Below are positions 6,297 through 31,268 of a DNA stretch of 64,000 bases, piece by piece (position 1 is the first letter of the stretch; every line of letters starts with the position of its first letter). The notes under the pieces are model-generated. The model was not told where the DNA came from. It saw only the letters and a program-made list of their open reading frames with translations, and did no database searches. This DNA comes from Escherichia coli (GTDB lineage Bacteria; Pseudomonadota; Gammaproteobacteria; Enterobacterales; Enterobacteriaceae). The translations under genes and the position numbers were made by a program. The stretch lies in assembly GCF_002854065.1 (NCBI RefSeq), contig NZ_CP024147.1; one strand, 5' to 3'.

Positions 6297-7016
6297 ATCG
6301 CTGCGACAGTGGCTAATGCTGTACTCAATAGGCCGTTGCTGTTGGTCAAGCGCCACTTGCTTGATCACCAGCACCGGTATTTTGCTATCTAACTGAATAT
6401 GTGACTGAAACTCGGCATCCGGCATCCGGGCGCTAACGCGGGAACGCGTACGTTGTGGGTAAATGTGCTGGCTGCGGAAATAGTCATAAAGTGAAATCCC
6501 GATGGCATCAACATCATGAATTAAATGCGCCGGAACCCACGATTCCTCAATCGATACCGCTTCTTCATCGACATAGCGAATACGCTTAAGCAAAAAGACA
6601 TCACTTCCTGCTTCGACCGCCAGCTGCTGCGCGACTTCTTCGGGACATTTCACGACACGCTTGTTAACCCATAGCGTATCGGGCTTTTTCCCGCGCAATA
6701 CCACCTGCTGAGAAAAACCTCGCGCTTCTTTCAACGAGTATTCGAAGATGTTGTTGATCTGCGTGCCGTAACCGCGCGAACGCGTCACCACGCCCTCTTC
6801 TTCCAGCGCCTGCATCGCCTTGCGCACCGTAATGCGCGAAACGCCGGTTAACTGACTTAAATCACGCTCACCGGGCAAAATATTGCCATGCTCCAGCACC
6901 CCGCTGCGCACGGCATTTTTTACCGTTTCGGCAAACTTAATATAAAGCGGCGTGTTATCCGCCGCTAAAATACGTTCGTTCAGTTGGGCAATCAGCTGGG
7001 TATGCGCTTCTTCCAT
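6270..7016 (-). CDS. yegW: GntR/HutC-family transcriptional regulator
   Basis: 248-aa ORF with N-terminal GntR helix-turn-helix (LPGERDLSQLTGVSRITVRKAMQALEEEGVV) and UTRA-like C-terminal domain. Confidence 0.85.
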   Translation of the reverse strand: MEEAHTQLIAQLNERILAADNTPLYIKFAETVKNAVRSGVLEHGNILPGERDLSQLTGVSRITVRKAMQALEEEGVVTRSRGYGTQINNIFEYSLKEARGFSQQVVLRGKKPDTLWVNKRVVKCPEEVAQQLAVEAGSDVFLLKRIRYVDEEAVSIEESWVPAHLIHDVDAIGISLYDYFRSQHIYPQRTRSRVSARMPDAEFQSHIQLDSKIPVLVIKQVALDQQQRPIEYSISHCRSDLYVFVCEE

Positions 7017-7067
7017 TTGTCTTTTTCCTGCCAGGAAGTCTGGTGGGAGTATATCACTGCTTCTTAT

Positions 7068-7895
7068 TTAAGGCGTTTCTTTAATCCCATCAACGAATCC
7101 CTGCAACTCCTCCACCGTGCCATTAAACACATTAAAATCCACCGGACCATTGATGCCATCTACCTGTCCACGGTCGGAATGCTGCCAGAAGCGCCAGGCC
7201 ATTCCGTCATTGTCCGGACGACGTTGATAATAGTGAGCCACCCACCACGGATATTCATTAAAATAGCCCGCCAGATTCGTGTGATAAAAAACGGCTCCTG
7301 AGTAAATAATCGGCTTTTTTCCCGTGCGTTTTTCTACCATTTTTAGCCACTGACTTACCCGCTTGCGTAATTCTTTTGCCGATAATTTTCCCCGTTCTTC
7401 TACGTCCAGCACGGCAGGGAAATCGCCTTGTGAGAAATCTACCGTTTGCAGAAATAATCGCGCCTGAACCGGTGCTGCTACCGACGGGGAAAAATAATGA
7501 TACGCCCCGCGCAGCAGGCCATTTTCGCGGCTTAGTTGCCAGTTACGCGAAAAATACGGGTCCACCAGCTTTTCGCCTTCCGTCGCCTTAATAAAAGCAA
7601 ACTGTAAGCGGATACCGTTGTCGCGCATTTTTGCCACCCGCTGCCAGTCGATCCGCTCCTGCCAGCGAGAAACATCTATTCCGTGAATGGTGTAACTGGC
7701 AGGAATGCGAATAGCGAAAGATTTAACCGGGCGATAACCGTAGAAATGGATGTAGTCTGTAATCTGAACTGCTGTCGAATAGAAAAAATTCACCGTCTGA
7801 CGCGGATAAATTGCAACGATGGAAATTAGCCCAAGAGCGCATAATAGAGAGGTGAGTTTTTTTCGACTGGTAATTCTTAGCTGCATTGGTTTCAT
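7068..7895 (-). CDS. yegX: Glycoside hydrolase family 25 (lysozyme-like) protein with signal peptide
   Basis: 275-aa ORF; N-terminal hydrophobic segment and GH25-like region (IHGIDVSRWQ...); position matches yegX. Confidence 0.75.
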   Translation of the reverse strand: MKPMQLRITSRKKLTSLLCALGLISIVAIYPRQTVNFFYSTAVQITDYIHFYGYRPVKSFAIRIPASYTIHGIDVSRWQERIDWQRVAKMRDNGIRLQFAFIKATEGEKLVDPYFSRNWQLSRENGLLRGAYHYFSPSVAAPVQARLFLQTVDFSQGDFPAVLDVEERGKLSAKELRKRVSQWLKMVEKRTGKKPIIYSGAVFYHTNLAGYFNEYPWWVAHYYQRRPDNDGMAWRFWQHSDRGQVDGINGPVDFNVFNGTVEELQGFVDGIKETP

Positions 7896-7950
7896 CCCTG
7901 AATGTCAGTGCCAAAGGCTGACAATAACCAAAGCAGCTATAGTACGGTGC

Positions 7951-8751
7951 TCACCACCAGGCGTGGAAGTGGTGAACCGGACCAATACCGTGACCAACTT
8001 CCAGCGTGTCGGCCTGGGCTAATGCTGATGAAAGCCAGCTTTTTGCCTCCTGTACGGTGTCAGCCCAGTTTGTATGGCGCGGGCGTAGTGCAGCCAACGC
8101 CGCAGAGAGCGTACAACCAGTGCCGTGGGTGTTTTTGGTCATAATGCGCGGTGCGGTAAACCGTTGTTCACCCTCGCGGGTAAACAGCCAGTCCGGGCTT
8201 TGCTCATCATCCAGATGACCACCTTTCATTAGCACTGCGCCACAGCCCATCGCCAACAGCGATCGCCCTTGTTCCAGCATTTCCTGTTCGGTGCGCGCGT
8301 GTGGCGCGTCGAGCAAGGCGGCAGCTTCGGGCAAGTTTGGCGTTATTAATGAAACCTGTGGCAATAATCGACTGCGCAGCGTAGCAACCGCCGAAGGTGA
8401 AAGCAGCGGGTCGCCGCTTTTTGCCAGCATAACGGTGTCGAGTACCACGTTTTGGATCTGATAACGTTGCAACCGTTCTGCCACCGCTTCAACAATATCG
8501 GTTTCCGCCAACATACCGATTTTAGTGGTGTCGATTCGCACATCGCTGAACACCGAATCGAGCTGGGCGGCGACAAAATCAGGCTCAATGCGATACACTG
8601 ACTGTACGCCACGGGTATTTTGCGCCACCAGTGCAGTAATAACTGAGCAACCATAAGCGCCAAGTGCCGAGAAGGTTTTAAGATCGGCCTGAATCCCCGC
8701 ACCACCACTCGGATCAGTACCGGCAATCGTCAGAGCGTTAATTCGTTTCAT
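7951..8751 (-). CDS. thiD: Hydroxymethylpyrimidine / phosphomethylpyrimidine kinase
   Basis: 266-aa [37 protein letters not shown]... recognised as ThiD. Confidence 0.9.
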
Positions 8752-9536
8752 GCCTGCACCTCCTGCGTCAATTGCCAGAGCGCATCAAGGAAATGTGGAA
8801 CAAAACTGCCTGGCCCCTCGCTTCTGGCGACTGCGCGTTCTCCGGCTTGTTTCATCCAGTGACAGGCAGATGCGACATTTTCCAGCGTATCGCCTGGTAA
8901 CGCACAGCAGGCAGCGACAACCGCCGATAATGCACAGCCAGTTCCTACCACTTTGGTCATTAACGGATCGCCACCGTGAATACCAATGATACGATGTCCA
9001 TCGGTAACATAATCCATCTCGCCAGTGACCACGACGATTGCGCCAGTTTCCCGTGCCAGTGTTTGTGCAGCGGGTATCGCGTTAGCTGCGGCGTCAGTGG
9101 TATCCACTCCCCGTCCACCATTAGCAATGCCAGCTAATGCCATGATTTCCGAAGCATTACCACGTATCGCTGCCGGTTTAAAAGATAAAAGTTCATGACA
9201 AAAATGGCGGCGATAATCGAGCGCACCAACCGCTACTGGATCAAGCGTCCAGGGTGTTTGAGAGCTTTTTGCTTGCTCAACGGCAGCACGCATCGCCTGA
9301 GCGCGTGGCTGCGTCAGTGTGCCAACGTTAATCAACAAGGCACTGGCGATAGCCGCAAACTGACTGGCCTCTTCGGTTTCGATAACCATCGCTGGCGATG
9401 CACCGAGCGCCAGCAAGGTATTGGCGGTAAAGGTTTGCACCACATCATTGGTCATGCAGTGCACAAGAGGGGAATGTTGGTGAAAAAGGTGTAACGCGTG
9501 CGCAGATTGCGCTGAACCCAGCAGGTCGACTTGCAT
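8748..9536 (-). CDS. thiM: Hydroxyethylthiazole kinase
   Basis: 262-aa [37 protein letters not shown]... recognised as ThiM; 4-nt overlap with thiD. Confidence 0.9.
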
Positions 9537-9544
9537 AGTTTGCT

Positions 9545-9665
9545 CCTGCCATAACGTGAAGAAGCAATGACCTGGTGGTCCGTGACTTCCCTACGCTGGC
9601 ATTATCCAGATCAGGTGATACGGGTATTTCTCAGCCTTCACGCAGAAGGGCACCCCGAGTCGTTT
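9545..9665 (-). promoter_or_regulatory. TPP riboswitch (THI element) in the thiM leader
   Basis: Minus-strand sequence ...ggggtgcccttctgcgtgaaggctgagaaatacccgtatcacctgatctggataatgccagcgtagggaag... immediately upstream of the thiM ATG matches the thiM TPP aptamer as recalled. Confidence 0.85.
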
Positions 9666-9758
9666 GGTTGCGATGATAAATCGCAGAGGAGGATGGTAAT
9701 GTCCAGCGCACGCGTTGTAAACGAGGAAAAACGGCAGTTTTACAATCGCGTTAATAAA

Positions 9759-10031
9759 TTATTTGATATATGAATCCAGCACCTTCAGAACGACATCCAG
9801 ATCTTCTTCACGTTTTAGCTCATCCCCCTGGTGAACGATGTGTTCCGTCAGATGACCTTTAATCACTTCCCGCATCAGACCGTTTACCGCGCCACGGATA
9901 GCAGCAATCTGTTGTAAAACTGCAGCGCATTCGTGCGGCTCGTCGAGCATTTTCTTGAGCGCCACGACCTGGCCCTGAATCTTACTGGCACGCGCTTTCA
10001 GTTTCTGTTTATCACGGATTGTATGAGACAT
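9759..10031 (-). CDS. rcnR: Ni/Co-responsive transcriptional repressor (CsoR/RcnR family)
   Basis: 90-aa [52 protein letters not shown]... recognised as RcnR. Confidence 0.9.
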
Positions 10032-10077
10032 GGCAACACCTGGTTAACAAGAATATGAAAAATCATAGCACTATTAA

Positions 10078-10112
10078 TCTACTGGGGGGTAGTATCAGGT
10101 ACTGGGGGGGAG
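10078..10112. promoter_or_regulatory. Two RcnR operator sites (TACT-G6/7-N-AGTA) in rcnR-rcnA divergent promoter
   Basis: tactggggggtagta at 10078-10092 and tactgggggggagta at 10098-10112; G-tract inverted repeats of the type described for RcnR binding. Confidence 0.75.
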
Positions 10113-10151
10113 TAGAATCAGATTGCCGAATTAATACTAAGAATTATTATC

Positions 10152-10976
10152 ATGACCGAATTTACAACTCTTCTTCAGCAAGGAAACGCCTGGTTCTTCA
10201 TCCCCAGCGCCATCTTACTTGGTGCGCTTCATGGCCTGGAACCAGGGCACTCAAAAACGATGATGGCGGCGTTTATCATCGCCATCAAAGGCACCATTAA
10301 ACAAGCGGTGATGCTCGGACTGGCAGCAACTATTTCGCATACCGCAGTGGTCTGGTTAATTGCCTTTGGCGGGATGGTGATCAGCAAGCGCTTTACTGCT
10401 CAATCAGCAGAACCGTGGCTCCAGCTGATTTCCGCAGTGATCATTATTAGCACCGCGTTCTGGATGTTCTGGCGTACCTGGCGCGGCGAACGCAACTGGC
10501 TGGAGAATATGCACGGGCATGATTATGAGCATCATCATCACGATCACGAACATCACCACGACCATGGACATCATCACCATCACGAACATGGCGAGTATCA
10601 GGATGCCCATGCACGAGCCCATGCCAATGACATTAAACGACGCTTTGATGGTAGAGAGGTCACCAACTGGCAAATTTTGTTATTTGGCTTAACCGGTGGC
10701 CTTATCCCCTGCCCGGCAGCAATTACCGTGCTGTTGATATGCATTCAGTTGAAAGCCCTGACACTGGGCGCAACACTGGTCGTCAGTTTCAGCATTGGCC
10801 TGGCGTTAACGCCTGTCACCGTAGGCGTTGGCGCAGCAATCAGCGTTCAGCAGGTCGCAAAACGCTGGAGCGGATTTAACACTCTCGCTAAACGCGCCCC
10901 CTATTTTTCCAGTCTGTTGATTGGCTTAGTCGGTGTGTATATGGGCGTACATGGCTTCATGGGCATAATGCGATAA
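10152..10976 (+). CDS. rcnA: Nickel/cobalt efflux membrane protein with His-rich loop
   Basis: 274-aa ORF with HGHDYEHHHHDHEHHHDHGHHHHHEHGEY histidine-rich segment and NiCoT-like transmembrane regions. Confidence 0.9.
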   Translation: MTEFTTLLQQGNAWFFIPSAILLGALHGLEPGHSKTMMAAFIIAIKGTIKQAVMLGLAATISHTAVVWLIAFGGMVISKRFTAQSAEPWLQLISAVIIISTAFWMFWRTWRGERNWLENMHGHDYEHHHHDHEHHHDHGHHHHHEHGEYQDAHARAHANDIKRRFDGREVTNWQILLFGLTGGLIPCPAAITVLLICIQLKALTLGATLVVSFSIGLALTPVTVGVGAAISVQQVAKRWSGFNTLAKRAPYFSSLLIGLVGVYMGVHGFMGIMR

Positions 10977-11194
10977 CTCAATCCTTTAGGCTTGCATGTT
11001 ATCTTCAGCCCAGGATGATTCTTAAATCAGCTATTTCCGCTGACTCTCTGCTCGCTAAGGATGCTTTTAGGGCATCCTTTCATTTACACTTTTTACGAAA
11101 TCATGGGATCACTAACAAAATATCGCTTGTCAGTTATATTGTATGGCAGGAAAGATATGCGACTGATATTACAGATCCCCAAAGTGGAGAGTTT

Positions 11195-11533
11195 ATGACC
11201 ATTAAAAATAAGATGTTGCTGGGTGCGCTTTTGCTGGTTACCAGTGCCGCCTGGGCCGCACCAGCCACCGCGGGTTCGACCAATACCTCGGGAATTTCTA
11301 AGTATGAGTTAAGCAGTTTCATTGCTGACTTTAAGCATTTCAAACCAGGCGATACCGTCCCAGAGATGTACCGCACCGATGAGTACAACATTAAGCAGTG
11401 GCAGTTACGTAACCTGCCCGCGCCTGATGCCGGGACGCACTGGACCTATATGGGTGGCGCGTACGTGTTGATCAGCGACACCGACGGTAAAATCATTAAA
11501 GCCTACGACGGTGAGATTTTTTATCATCGCTAA
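11195..11533 (+). CDS. rcnB: Periplasmic Ni/Co homeostasis protein
   Basis: Translation MTIKNKMLLGALLLVTSAAWAAPA... with signal peptide; 112 aa after trimming the 172-aa ORF. Confidence 0.85.
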   Translation: MTIKNKMLLGALLLVTSAAWAAPATAGSTNTSGISKYELSSFIADFKHFKPGDTVPEMYRTDEYNIKQWQLRNLPAPDAGTHWTYMGGAYVLISDTDGKIIKAYDGEIFYHR

Positions 11534-11558
11534 AAAAAGCCCCCTCATCATGAGGGGG
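11532..11558 (-). terminator. Stem-loop with U-run on the minus strand (candidate rho-independent terminator)
   Basis: gccccctcatcatgagggggc hairpin; on the minus strand it is followed by a T7 run. Confidence 0.5.
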
Positions 11559-11614
11559 AAATGCAGACACCTTGTTATTTTTTATTATTAGCCACTTGCT
11601 CGTCTTGCTTGTTA

Positions 11615-11761
11615 TTAGTCGTATTTCACGTTGATTAATGCGGTTGCCTCCAGTGCGCCAGATTTAATTTTATTTGTATCGTAGACGTAGTAACTGGCTG
11701 TTATCGGAATTGAAACCGTTGTATCTGTAAGTTTTGACTTTGCCGCAATTTCTTTTAAATT
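11615..11761 (-). pseudogene. yehA: 3' remnant of a fimbrial-subunit-like gene (yehA position) truncated by IS1
   Basis: Minus-strand frame reads ...NLKEIAAKSKLTDTTVSIPITASYYVYDTNKIKSGALEATALINVKYD* and runs open into the IS1 end at 11764; gene identity inferred from position next to rcnB. Confidence 0.5.
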
Positions 11762-11778
11762 TGGGTAATGACTCCAAC

Positions 11779-12282
11779 TTATTGATAGTGTTTTATGTTC
11801 AGATAATGCCCGATGACTTTGTCATGCAGCTCCACCGATTTTGAGAACGACAGCGACTTCCGTCCCAGCCGTGCCAGGTGCTGCCTCAGATTCAGGTTAT
11901 GCCGCTCAATTCGCTGCGTATATCGCTTGCTGATTACGTGCAGCTTTCCCTTCAGGCGGGATTCATACAGCGGCCAGCCATCCGTCATCCATATCACCAC
12001 GTCAAAGGGTGACAGCAGGCTCATAAGACGCCCCAGCGTCGCCATAGTGCGTTCACCGAATACGTGCGCAACAACCGTCTTCCGGAGCCTGTCATACGCG
12101 TAAAACAGCCAGCGCTGGCGCGATTTAGCCCCGACGTATCCCCACTGTTCGTCCATTTCCGCGCAGACGATGACGTCACTGCCCGGCTGTATGCGCGAGG
12201 TTACCGACTGCGGCCTGAGTTTTTTAAATGGCGGAAAATCGTGTTGAGGCCAACGCCCATAATGCGGGCGGTTGCCCGGCAT
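11779..12282 (-). CDS. insB: IS1 InsB reading frame (transposase made as InsAB' by -1 frameshift)
   Basis: 167-aa ORF ...[54 protein letters not shown]... recognised as InsB; overlaps insA 3' end. Confidence 0.9.
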
Positions 12283-12476
12283 CCAACGCCATTCATGGCC
12301 ATATCAATGATTTTCTGGTGCGTACCGGGTTGAGAAGCGGTGTAAGTGAACTGCAGTTGCCATGTTTTACGGCAGTGAGAGCAGAGATAGCGCTGATGTC
12401 CGGCAGTGCTTTTGCCGTTACGCACCACCCCGTCAGTAGCTGAACAGGAGGGACAGCTGATAGAAACAGAAGCCAC
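12201..12476 (-). CDS. insA: IS1 InsA protein
   Basis: 91-aa [46 protein letters not shown]... recognised as InsA. Confidence 0.95.
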
Positions 12477-12600
12477 TGGAGCACCTCAAAAACACCATCA
12501 TACACTAAATCAGTAAGTTGGCAGCATCACCGACTTTGTAGAGTTTCGGACGAAGGTCCGCAGAATATTCGCAGTATTAAATAAGTGTTCATTAATGCGG

Positions 12601-30162: not shown

Positions 30163-31095
30163 TTAATCGTTCTGTGCCGTCTGCCCCGCCGCCGCCATTT
30201 GGGCGGCTTTTTGTTTTTTATAGCTCAACGCTGCTGCCGGAACAGGCATCACTTTACCGGTTTCAATCCAGGTTCGCAGGCGGCTGGCATCGGCAAAATG
30301 GGTATATTTGCCAAACGCATCCATCACTACCAGCGCCACCGGTTTATTATTGATAACCGTACGCATCACCAGACAATGGCCCGCCGCATTGGTAAAGCCG
30401 GTTTTGGTTAGCTGGATATTCCAGTTATCGCGATACACCAGATGATTAGTATTGCGGAACGGCAGCGTATACGTCGGGTTAGAGAAGGTTGCCATATCTT
30501 CCCGGGTGGTACTTAACTGCCCGATCAACGGATATTGTTTGCTGGCAATGAGCAGTTTGGTTAAGTCACGGGCGGTTGAAACGTTATGCACCGACAATCC
30601 GGTCGGTTCAACAAAGCGCGTGTTGTTCATTCCGAGCGATTTCGCTTTCGCATTCATCGCCTTAATAAAGGCTTTGTAACCACCGGGATAATGGTGCGCA
30701 AGGCTTGCCGCCGCGCGGTTTTCTGAAGACATCAACGCCAGCAACAGCATATCTTTACGGCTGATTTCGCTGTTCAGTCGTACGCGCGAATAGACCCCTT
30801 TCATCTCCGGCGTCTGGCTGATATCCACTTTTAGTTTTTCATCCAGCGGCAGTCGTGCATCCAGCACGACCATCGCAGTCATTAATTTGCTGATAGACGC
30901 AATCGGACGCACCAGATCCGGGTGGTTCGAATAGATCACTTTGTTGGTATTCAGATCAACAATCATCGCGCTACCGGAGGCAATTTCCGGTTGTGAAGCG
31001 GTGGTAGCGGCTGCCGTTTTCGCAACGGCCTGCGGTGCAAAAGGCACAGCCAGCATCAGGGTCAGGCTAAATAAAGAAACTCGAAATTTCGGCAT
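30163..31095 (-). CDS. pbpG: D-alanyl-D-alanine endopeptidase (PBP7)
   Basis: Translation [11 protein letters not shown]... with SISK active-site motif ([11 protein letters not shown]); 310 aa after start trimming. Confidence 0.9.
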
Positions 31096-31268
31096 GATGA
31101 GCATTCAGATAGTGGTTCACGCGCACGGGTTGCGCACCGCCGGAGTAAGGATTTACTGAGGCTAGCGACGCCATCATAACGAGCAAAAAGTGCGATCGTC
31201 AAAGGAGAATCGTGAGGAAATGCTGCATTGCTGACATTTACGCCAGCAATGCAACGTCAAAGAACTTT

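Follow-up and report, generated by a model that had tools for sequence, protein, structure and literature searches.

The window analyzed here, a 64,000-nucleotide stretch of Escherichia coli DNA (contig NZ_CP024147.1, RefSeq assembly GCF_002854065.1), carries a thiamine pyrophosphate (TPP) riboswitch in the leader of thiM and a pair of RcnR operators between the divergent genes rcnR and rcnA (Table 1). Genes at the locus are ordered yegW, yegX, thiD, thiM (minus strand), rcnR (minus strand), rcnA, and rcnB (both plus strand). Over positions 9400 to 10300 (901 bases), the window is 100% identical to E. coli K-12 MG1655, with no mismatch, and megablast detected this region in 5424 of 5426 complete E. 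coli genomes. Where RefSeq genomes of E. coli are 100% identical over the stretch, PGAP annotates the riboswitch, rcnR, rcnA, and thiM there, and the 97 nt identical to our aptamer carry the label "TPP riboswitch." ThiM shows zero amino acid differences from its K-12 counterpart and rcnR is identical to that of K-12; the sole amino acid change among thiM, rcnR, rcnA, and rcnB is Leu221Pro in a predicted membrane segment of RcnA (codon 221, positions 10812 to 10814). The host is nevertheless not K-12, from which it is separated by 44 SNPs in 6300 to 11600 and by a different structure beyond rcnB. There, an IS1 copy (11668 to 12530; transposase ORFs at 11779 to 12476) replaces most of yehA-yehE between rcnB and mrp/apbC, at the position where K-12 has the full yehABCDE fimbrial cluster. 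The exact IS1 junction was found at 100% identity in 2 of the 5426 complete genomes.

Table 1. Genes, regulatory elements, and candidate sites at the thiMD-rcnR-rcnAB locus (window coordinates)
Feature	Position	Strand	Basis
thiD, next after thiM	7951-8751	-	ORF list
thiM, hydroxyethylthiazole kinase, first gene of thiMD	8748-9536	-	ORF list; TIGR00694, 341 bits
thiM start codon	9536-9534	-	
Shine-Dalgarno (SD) sequence AGGAG of thiM	9547-9543	-	
Anti-SD UUGCUUCUUCA	9567-9557	-	
thiM expression platform	9534-9570	-	Constrained folding
TPP (THI-box) riboswitch aptamer, thiM leader	9571-9667	-	Rfam RF00059
Island-junction segment of the aptamer (P4/P5 region), empty in the window	9589-9616	-	Junctions in other genomes
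Sigma-70-like site, candidate thiM promoter (TTTACA, 17-nt spacer, TACCAT)	9693-9721	-	Consensus scan only, 9/12 matches
rcnR, Ni(II)/Co(II)-responsive repressor, CsoR/RcnR family	9759-10031	-	NF011613 equivalog, 197 bits (cutoff, 138)
TGCTATGAT, candidate extended -10 of rcnR, 9 bp from operator 1	10062-10070	-	Conservation
RcnR operator site 1, TACT-G6-T-AGTA, TACTGGGGGGTAGTA	10080-10094	+	Exact motif
RcnR operator site 2, TACT-G6-G-AGTA (G7 run), TACTGGGGGGGAGTA	10100-10114	+	Exact motif
TAGAAT, candidate rcnA -10 hexamer, overlapping the 3' arm of operator 2	10113-10118	+	Conservation
rcnA, Ni/Co efflux protein with His-rich loop	10152-10976	+	NF007454, 556 bits
rcnB, after rcnA	11195-11533	+	

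A gathering-threshold Rfam scan of the whole 64 kb returned two hits. The first, in the thiM leader, matches RF00059 over the complete model (positions 1 to 105 of 105) with 71.2 bits against a gathering score of 54.3 and an E value of 5e-12. The aptamer core is complete, including the CUGAGA junction, the ACCUGAUCUGGAUAAUGCCAGCG sensor helices, and the P1 to P5 pairings, all aligned at a posterior probability near 1; 21 of 23 model pairs are canonical, and the optional P3a hairpin of RF00059 is absent, as it is in K-12 thiM. The thiM ATG (9536) follows 35 nt past the aptamer end on the same strand. By score, core, leader position, and expression platform, this minus-strand element is a TPP riboswitch. 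The sequence-only reading of this DNA had placed a THI-box aptamer in the thiM leader at 9545 to 9665 and had named an Rfam scan as the refuting test; the scan detected a TPP aptamer and the claim stands. That interval covers the aptamer and most of the expression platform, and the strand, which had gone unstated, is minus. Aptamer scores of 70 to 74 bits were obtained for seven collected thiM leaders (Escherichia and one Erwinia metagenome-assembled genome [MAG]). In a covariation count over these leaders, 94% of cells were paired and 2 pairs changed on both sides, which 40 of 500 shuffles equaled or bettered; since the seven sequences are nearly invariant, this count says nothing either way. 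Binding of TPP by the element and the resulting repression of thiM would be as published for the identical K-12 sequence.

The second Rfam hit was a Peptidase-S11 RNA (RF03039) on the minus strand at 31100 to 31180 (72.8 bits; threshold, 34.8). Its immediate downstream neighbor, whose start it slightly overlaps, is a D-alanyl-D-alanine endopeptidase gene of the pbpG type (NF008668, 599 bits; ORF 30163 to 31104).

Because rcnR and thiMD share a strand and no convincing terminator separates them, some read-through from rcnR into thiMD could occur. A promoter and terminator scan detected no intrinsic terminator in the thiM leader or elsewhere in 9400 to 10300. Likewise, the search between the rcnR stop codon (9759) and the thiM leader (9686 to 9765, minus strand) yielded a single hairpin at about 9714 to 9752, which is weak (-13.2 kcal/mol, z score of -1.5) and has no U-tract. 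This hairpin is an imperfect one of 12 bp, contains the candidate -35 of thiM, and is not significantly stable. Ni/Co-induced transcription of rcnR might by this route enter the thiM leader and tie metal stress to thiamine salvage. We consider such coupling of the two switches very unlikely. Among loci with at least 1.4 kb of flanking sequence, thiM lies beyond rcnR in 4 of 55 (Escherichia and one Erwinia MAG); foreign DNA of 2 to 12 kb stands between the two genes in about 13% of E. coli genomes; a promoter-like site is found just upstream of the thiM leader; and the riboswitch would still control any transcript that reads through. If that promoter-like site is the thiM promoter, it would set the transcript start near 9685, and the minus-strand thiMD mRNA would begin with the aptamer (9667 to 9571).

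To follow the expression platform, the leader (9685 to 9505) was folded twice, once unconstrained and once with the Rfam aptamer pairs enforced. In the free fold, 9566 to 9547, which includes the CUUCUUC anti-SD, paired with the 3' half of the aptamer (9601 to 9583), and about half of AGGAG was unpaired. With the aptamer enforced, 9567 to 9557 paired with 9551 to 9540, and the in silico probability that the SD is unpaired fell from 0.54 to 0.01. Numbering from the published SD at nt 126 to 129 puts the folded segments at nt 71 to 86 and nt 108 to 125. Chemical probing of the K-12 RNA found nt 71 to 86 paired with nt 108 to 125 in the TPP-free state and the SD sequestered once TPP was bound (PMC1920254), and our predicted alternative pairings coincide with that probing-based model. 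In the absence of TPP, then, the 3' half of the aptamer would hold the anti-SD, leaving the SD free and thiM translated. On TPP binding, the aptamer would close and release the anti-SD, which would pair with the SD region and block initiation. Published work describes thiM as such a translational switch, with Rho-dependent mRNA loss as a secondary effect (PMC11487190), and by extension reduced translation would here lower the mRNA level secondarily, via Rho.

Many TPP riboswitches of Firmicutes act as transcription attenuators. Together with the lowering of thiM mRNA by TPP when the reporter fusion includes at least 34 codons (PMC11487190), this might suggest a mainly attenuating element built on an intrinsic terminator in place of a translational switch. 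However, the segment from aptamer to thiM has no terminator-like hairpin with a U-tract, anti-SD/SD pairing follows aptamer closure both in silico and in the probing experiments, and the drop in mRNA has been ascribed to Rho acting once translation is blocked (PMC11487190). These observations make attenuation as the main mode very improbable and favor translational control. The E. coli thiC and tbpA riboswitches share the aptamer class of thiM, and all repress translation initiation on TPP; they differ in that thiC has its Rho site within the riboswitch, whereas the effect on mRNA level at thiM depends on about 34 codons of the coding region (PMC11487190).

On the other side of rcnR, the motif TACT-G6-N-AGTA occurs as two exact copies, the only matches on either strand of the 64 kb. 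No match arose in 100 dinucleotide-preserving shuffles, meaning that none is expected by chance, and with up to two mismatches tolerated the window still yielded just the two operators. Their centers are 20 bp apart, and the pair is 48 bp away from the start codon of rcnR and 37 bp away from that of rcnA. In each site, inverted TACT/AGTA arms enclose one uninterrupted G/C tract, as in the published type 1 CsoR/RcnR site. The RcnR encoded alongside has His3, Cys35, His60, and His64, which reportedly make up the metal-site fingerprint of RcnR (Iwig et al. 2008). By motif, tandem location between divergent genes, and an adjacent cognate repressor, the pair at 10080 to 10114 is an RcnR operator. 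The motif and its function are attributed to Iwig and Chivers (2009) in PMC3902906, PMC7055735, and PMC7105576; the apo-RcnR footprint and its release by Ni(II) or Co(II), as cited there, were published for the identical K-12 sequence and would be expected to hold here.

Tandem TACT-G6/7-N-AGTA operators at the divergent rcnR-rcnA promoter had also been recognized in the sequence-only reading, a claim that the two exact copies bear out. The end coordinate given there, 10112, reaches operator 2 but cuts off its last 2 bp (true end, 10114). The description of the two switches as back-to-back is loose: synteny alone makes them neighbors, and the 412 bp that separate them take in all of rcnR. The same reading had called both elements well described and had listed them as internal positive controls, a label that was appropriate; both are identical to the K-12 originals.

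The specificity of the operator pair was assessed by scanning one genome per bacterial species for the pattern TACTGGGGGGNAGTA, 0 to 30 nt, TACTGGGGGG. It found 85 loci, which belong to Enterobacterales, Vibrio, Shewanella, and Chromobacterium. Every one of them has the motif beside a divergent rcnR homologue (58 to 100% identity), beside an rcnA homologue, or between the two, and the strand rich in G is always on the rcnA side. Both genes can be seen at 73 loci. Since the set was chosen by the motif itself, these counts speak to the specificity of the motif for rcnR-rcnA and not to its prevalence among rcnR loci. Positions left free in the pattern are also conserved: all 85 species have T as the N of site 1, and 77 of the 85 end site 2 with GAGTA. 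The inter-operator spacer, which takes 40 different sequences, is 5 bp long at 67 loci and 6 bp long at 17. Fixed arms around a drifting spacer of 5 to 6 bp look like a protein-binding pair with fixed helical phasing. That the G-runs are instead chance homopolymers, G-quadruplex DNA, or slippage-prone phase-variation tracts, for which the differing length of the site 2 run between species might speak (G6 in 4 loci, G7 in 77, and G8 in 2), has next to no probability when both runs bear exact palindromic arms with a chance expectation of zero, two G-runs make an intramolecular quadruplex impossible, the arrangement beside rcnR is kept in 85 of 85 species while the spacer has 40 variants, and the site is base-identical to K-12. 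The four loci with G6 at operator 2 lack the N position, and Vibrio diabolicus has three tandem sites, of which the middle one is G5.

Candidate promoters were located by conservation across 61 aligned complete rcnR-rcnA intergenic regions. The element TAnnnT, made up of the last TA of site 2 and the next four bases, is present in 61 of 61, at 27 to 36 nt before the rcnA start codon (33 nt here). On the rcnR strand, TGnTAnnnT is present in 55 of 61, at a distance from operator 1 of 9 nt (30 loci) or 26 to 27 nt (21 loci). We infer from this conservation that TAGAAT is the rcnA -10 and TGCTATGAT the rcnR extended -10. A generic promoter scan missed both elements, and two of its three hits are incompatible with the gene starts and were not adopted: one falls within the coding region of rcnR, and the other predicts a transcript beginning past the rcnA ATG.

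Since the operators overlap the likely rcnA -10 and abut the likely rcnR extended -10, RcnR would be expected to repress both divergent promoters. Metal-free RcnR tetramers would bind both sites, covering the rcnA -10 from site 2 and the -35 zones of both promoters from site 1. Binding of Ni(II) or Co(II) to RcnR would bring about its release and switch on the RcnAB efflux system together with rcnR itself. According to the title of a 2011 study by Blaha et al., RcnR reportedly represses both genes through a shared operator, and the proposed coverage of both promoters fits that title claim.

In several other E. coli strains, IS elements part rcnA from its operators. An O121 strain carries IS1 after rcnA codon 3 (equivalent to window positions 10154 to 10162) with a 9-bp duplication, GACCGAATT. 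In strain ET979, a copy of IS1 sits immediately next to the annotated start of rcnA, and in ETEC4085 an IS5-family element lies between operator 2 and the rcnA start codon (about 10137 to 10143 in window coordinates).

Comparison with known systems places both elements among those already known. The K-12 thiM TPP riboswitch, reportedly the subject of Winkler et al. 2002, is the same element, with leader bases, aptamer, and anti-SD/SD pairings alike; the difference lies in the host strain, with its 44 SNPs and the IS1-associated yehA-yehE deletion nearby. The rcnR-rcnA tandem operator of K-12 likewise has an identical intergenic region, two sites with centers 20 bp apart, and divergent genes; the operator is unchanged, and RcnA carries L221P here. 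Type 2 operators, exemplified by Streptomyces lividans CsoR, have in common with the sites here the repressor family, G/C-tract pseudopalindromes, and AT-rich (A)GTA dyads (PMC3902906). They differ in having two short G/C tracts, about 11 bp between dyads, and two bound tetramers (PMC3902906), in contrast to the single unbroken G6-7 tract, about 7 bp between arms, and one tetramer reported per site for the type found here. K-12 is the strain in which the thiM riboswitch (PMC1920254) and the RcnR operators (Iwig and Chivers 2009, as cited in PMC3902906, PMC7055735, and PMC7105576) were studied. We regard it as nearly certain that the locus holds two independent, already characterized E. coli sensors side by side, a TPP switch and an RcnR double operator. 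Because both are base-identical to K-12, the original finding is correct but ordinary.

Beyond this conserved arrangement, the stretch from the thiM leader to rcnR is not contiguous in 697 of 5424 E. coli genomes (about 13%), and 308 extra partial copies were detected. In several strains, islands of 5 to 12 kb encoding a tyrosine integrase lie inside the TPP aptamer and bring an aptamer 5' part of their own, so that two aptamers flank the island. The junctions, marked here by a slash, are GCGTAG/TCTGGC and GCGTAGGG/GGCCAAAA (E. coli ECL27977, 1916D18, and 503440). Strain 503440, with the latter junction, has a 7.7-kb island between two TPP riboswitches detected by both Rfam and PGAP. Read from the rcnR side, its order is rcnR, the native thiM promoter, an aptamer (61.3 bits), a 66-nt gap, a gene for a 435-amino-acid tyrosine integrase, HNH, HTH, and resolvase genes, an HTH_73 gene, a second aptamer (71.2 bits), and thiM; about 84 bp of the copy on the island match the native aptamer. 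A related element is present as about 12 kb in 1916D18 and as a degenerate 5.4-kb remnant in ECL27977. The 1916D18 integrase is 67% identical to that of 503440; further products of the element in that strain are a capsid protein and an AAA nuclease. In the aptamer copy of the 1916D18/ECL27977 element, the P3 loop differs and a C has been changed to T, so that the crossover must lie within 9616 to 9591; the hybrid riboswitch scores 75 bits. In ET979 (73.6 bits), P3 takes a third form that still pairs. P3 variants of the hybrid aptamers in island-bearing strains include a TTAAA loop and CCCCAUC. O157:H7 and O55:H7 have a 2.2-kb remnant with no integrase.

Integrase homologues with 78 to 83% identity were found in Enterobacter, Cronobacter, Citrobacter, and Klebsiella, and the same junction lies upstream of homologues in four genera. 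At all five loci checked (two Enterobacter contexts, Cronobacter, Klebsiella, and E. coli), the integrase gene is preceded on its own strand by an above-threshold TPP aptamer (57 to 63 bits), with 68 nt between the aptamer end and the gene. The hairpin after the junction shows a compensatory A-T to G-C change in Klebsiella. Island cargo includes AIPR, SIR2-like, and HigB-like genes. From these junctions it appears likely that the P4/P5 segment of the aptamer (9589 to 9616) is the attB of a clade of tyrosine integrases on small defense-type or satellite-like islands of Enterobacteriaceae, and that each island brings its own aptamer 5' part, with a divergent but still paired P3, to rebuild before thiM a TPP riboswitch that scores as full length. 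Integration would leave the native promoter and aptamer before the integrase gene, and since the islands carry an aptamer 5' part, it would at the same time restore the riboswitch before thiM. Use of the aptamer as attB, much as tRNA genes are used, is the simplest reading of these junctions. Like islands at tRNA and tmRNA genes, the thiM-aptamer islands would use a structured-RNA-encoding sequence as attB and have the integrase gene beside one junction, and function would be restored because the island carries a copy of the displaced part. They would differ in targeting the leader of an mRNA, at its riboswitch aptamer, and in that the 5' part and promoter are replaced, whereas tRNA and tmRNA islands replace a 3' end.

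Searches for a phage or satellite source of the islands were negative: tblastn of the integrase against 50,697 phage records returned nothing, island-end DNA matched phages only through IS4 fragments, and the attL junction was absent from IMG/VR. A literature search pairing thiM or TPP riboswitch with attB, integrase, or island returned no work describing a riboswitch as an attachment site. TPP control of the island integrase was considered and set aside: in three leaders, the SD of the integrase gene is predicted to be sequestered with or without the aptamer enforced, so a TPP switch acting on the integrase is not supported.

As originally submitted, the finding serves as a positive control, indicating that a reader of raw sequence can recognize a THI-box and RcnR G-tract operators; the follow-up fixes the strand and exact coordinates of both. 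In the comparison across species, the operator geometry (fixed arms and a spacer of 5 to 6 bp with free sequence) holds over Enterobacterales, Vibrio, Shewanella, and Chromobacterium, and the conserved -10-like elements would place the operators on both promoters. If the attachment site reading of the thiM aptamer is true, the rule that structured RNA genes serve as attB, drawn from tRNA and tmRNA genes, would come to include riboswitches. The break in thiM-rcnR synteny seen in roughly one E. coli genome out of eight, O157:H7 among them, would then be explained, and the islands would offer natural riboswitch chimeras in which to study which parts of the aptamer tolerate replacement.
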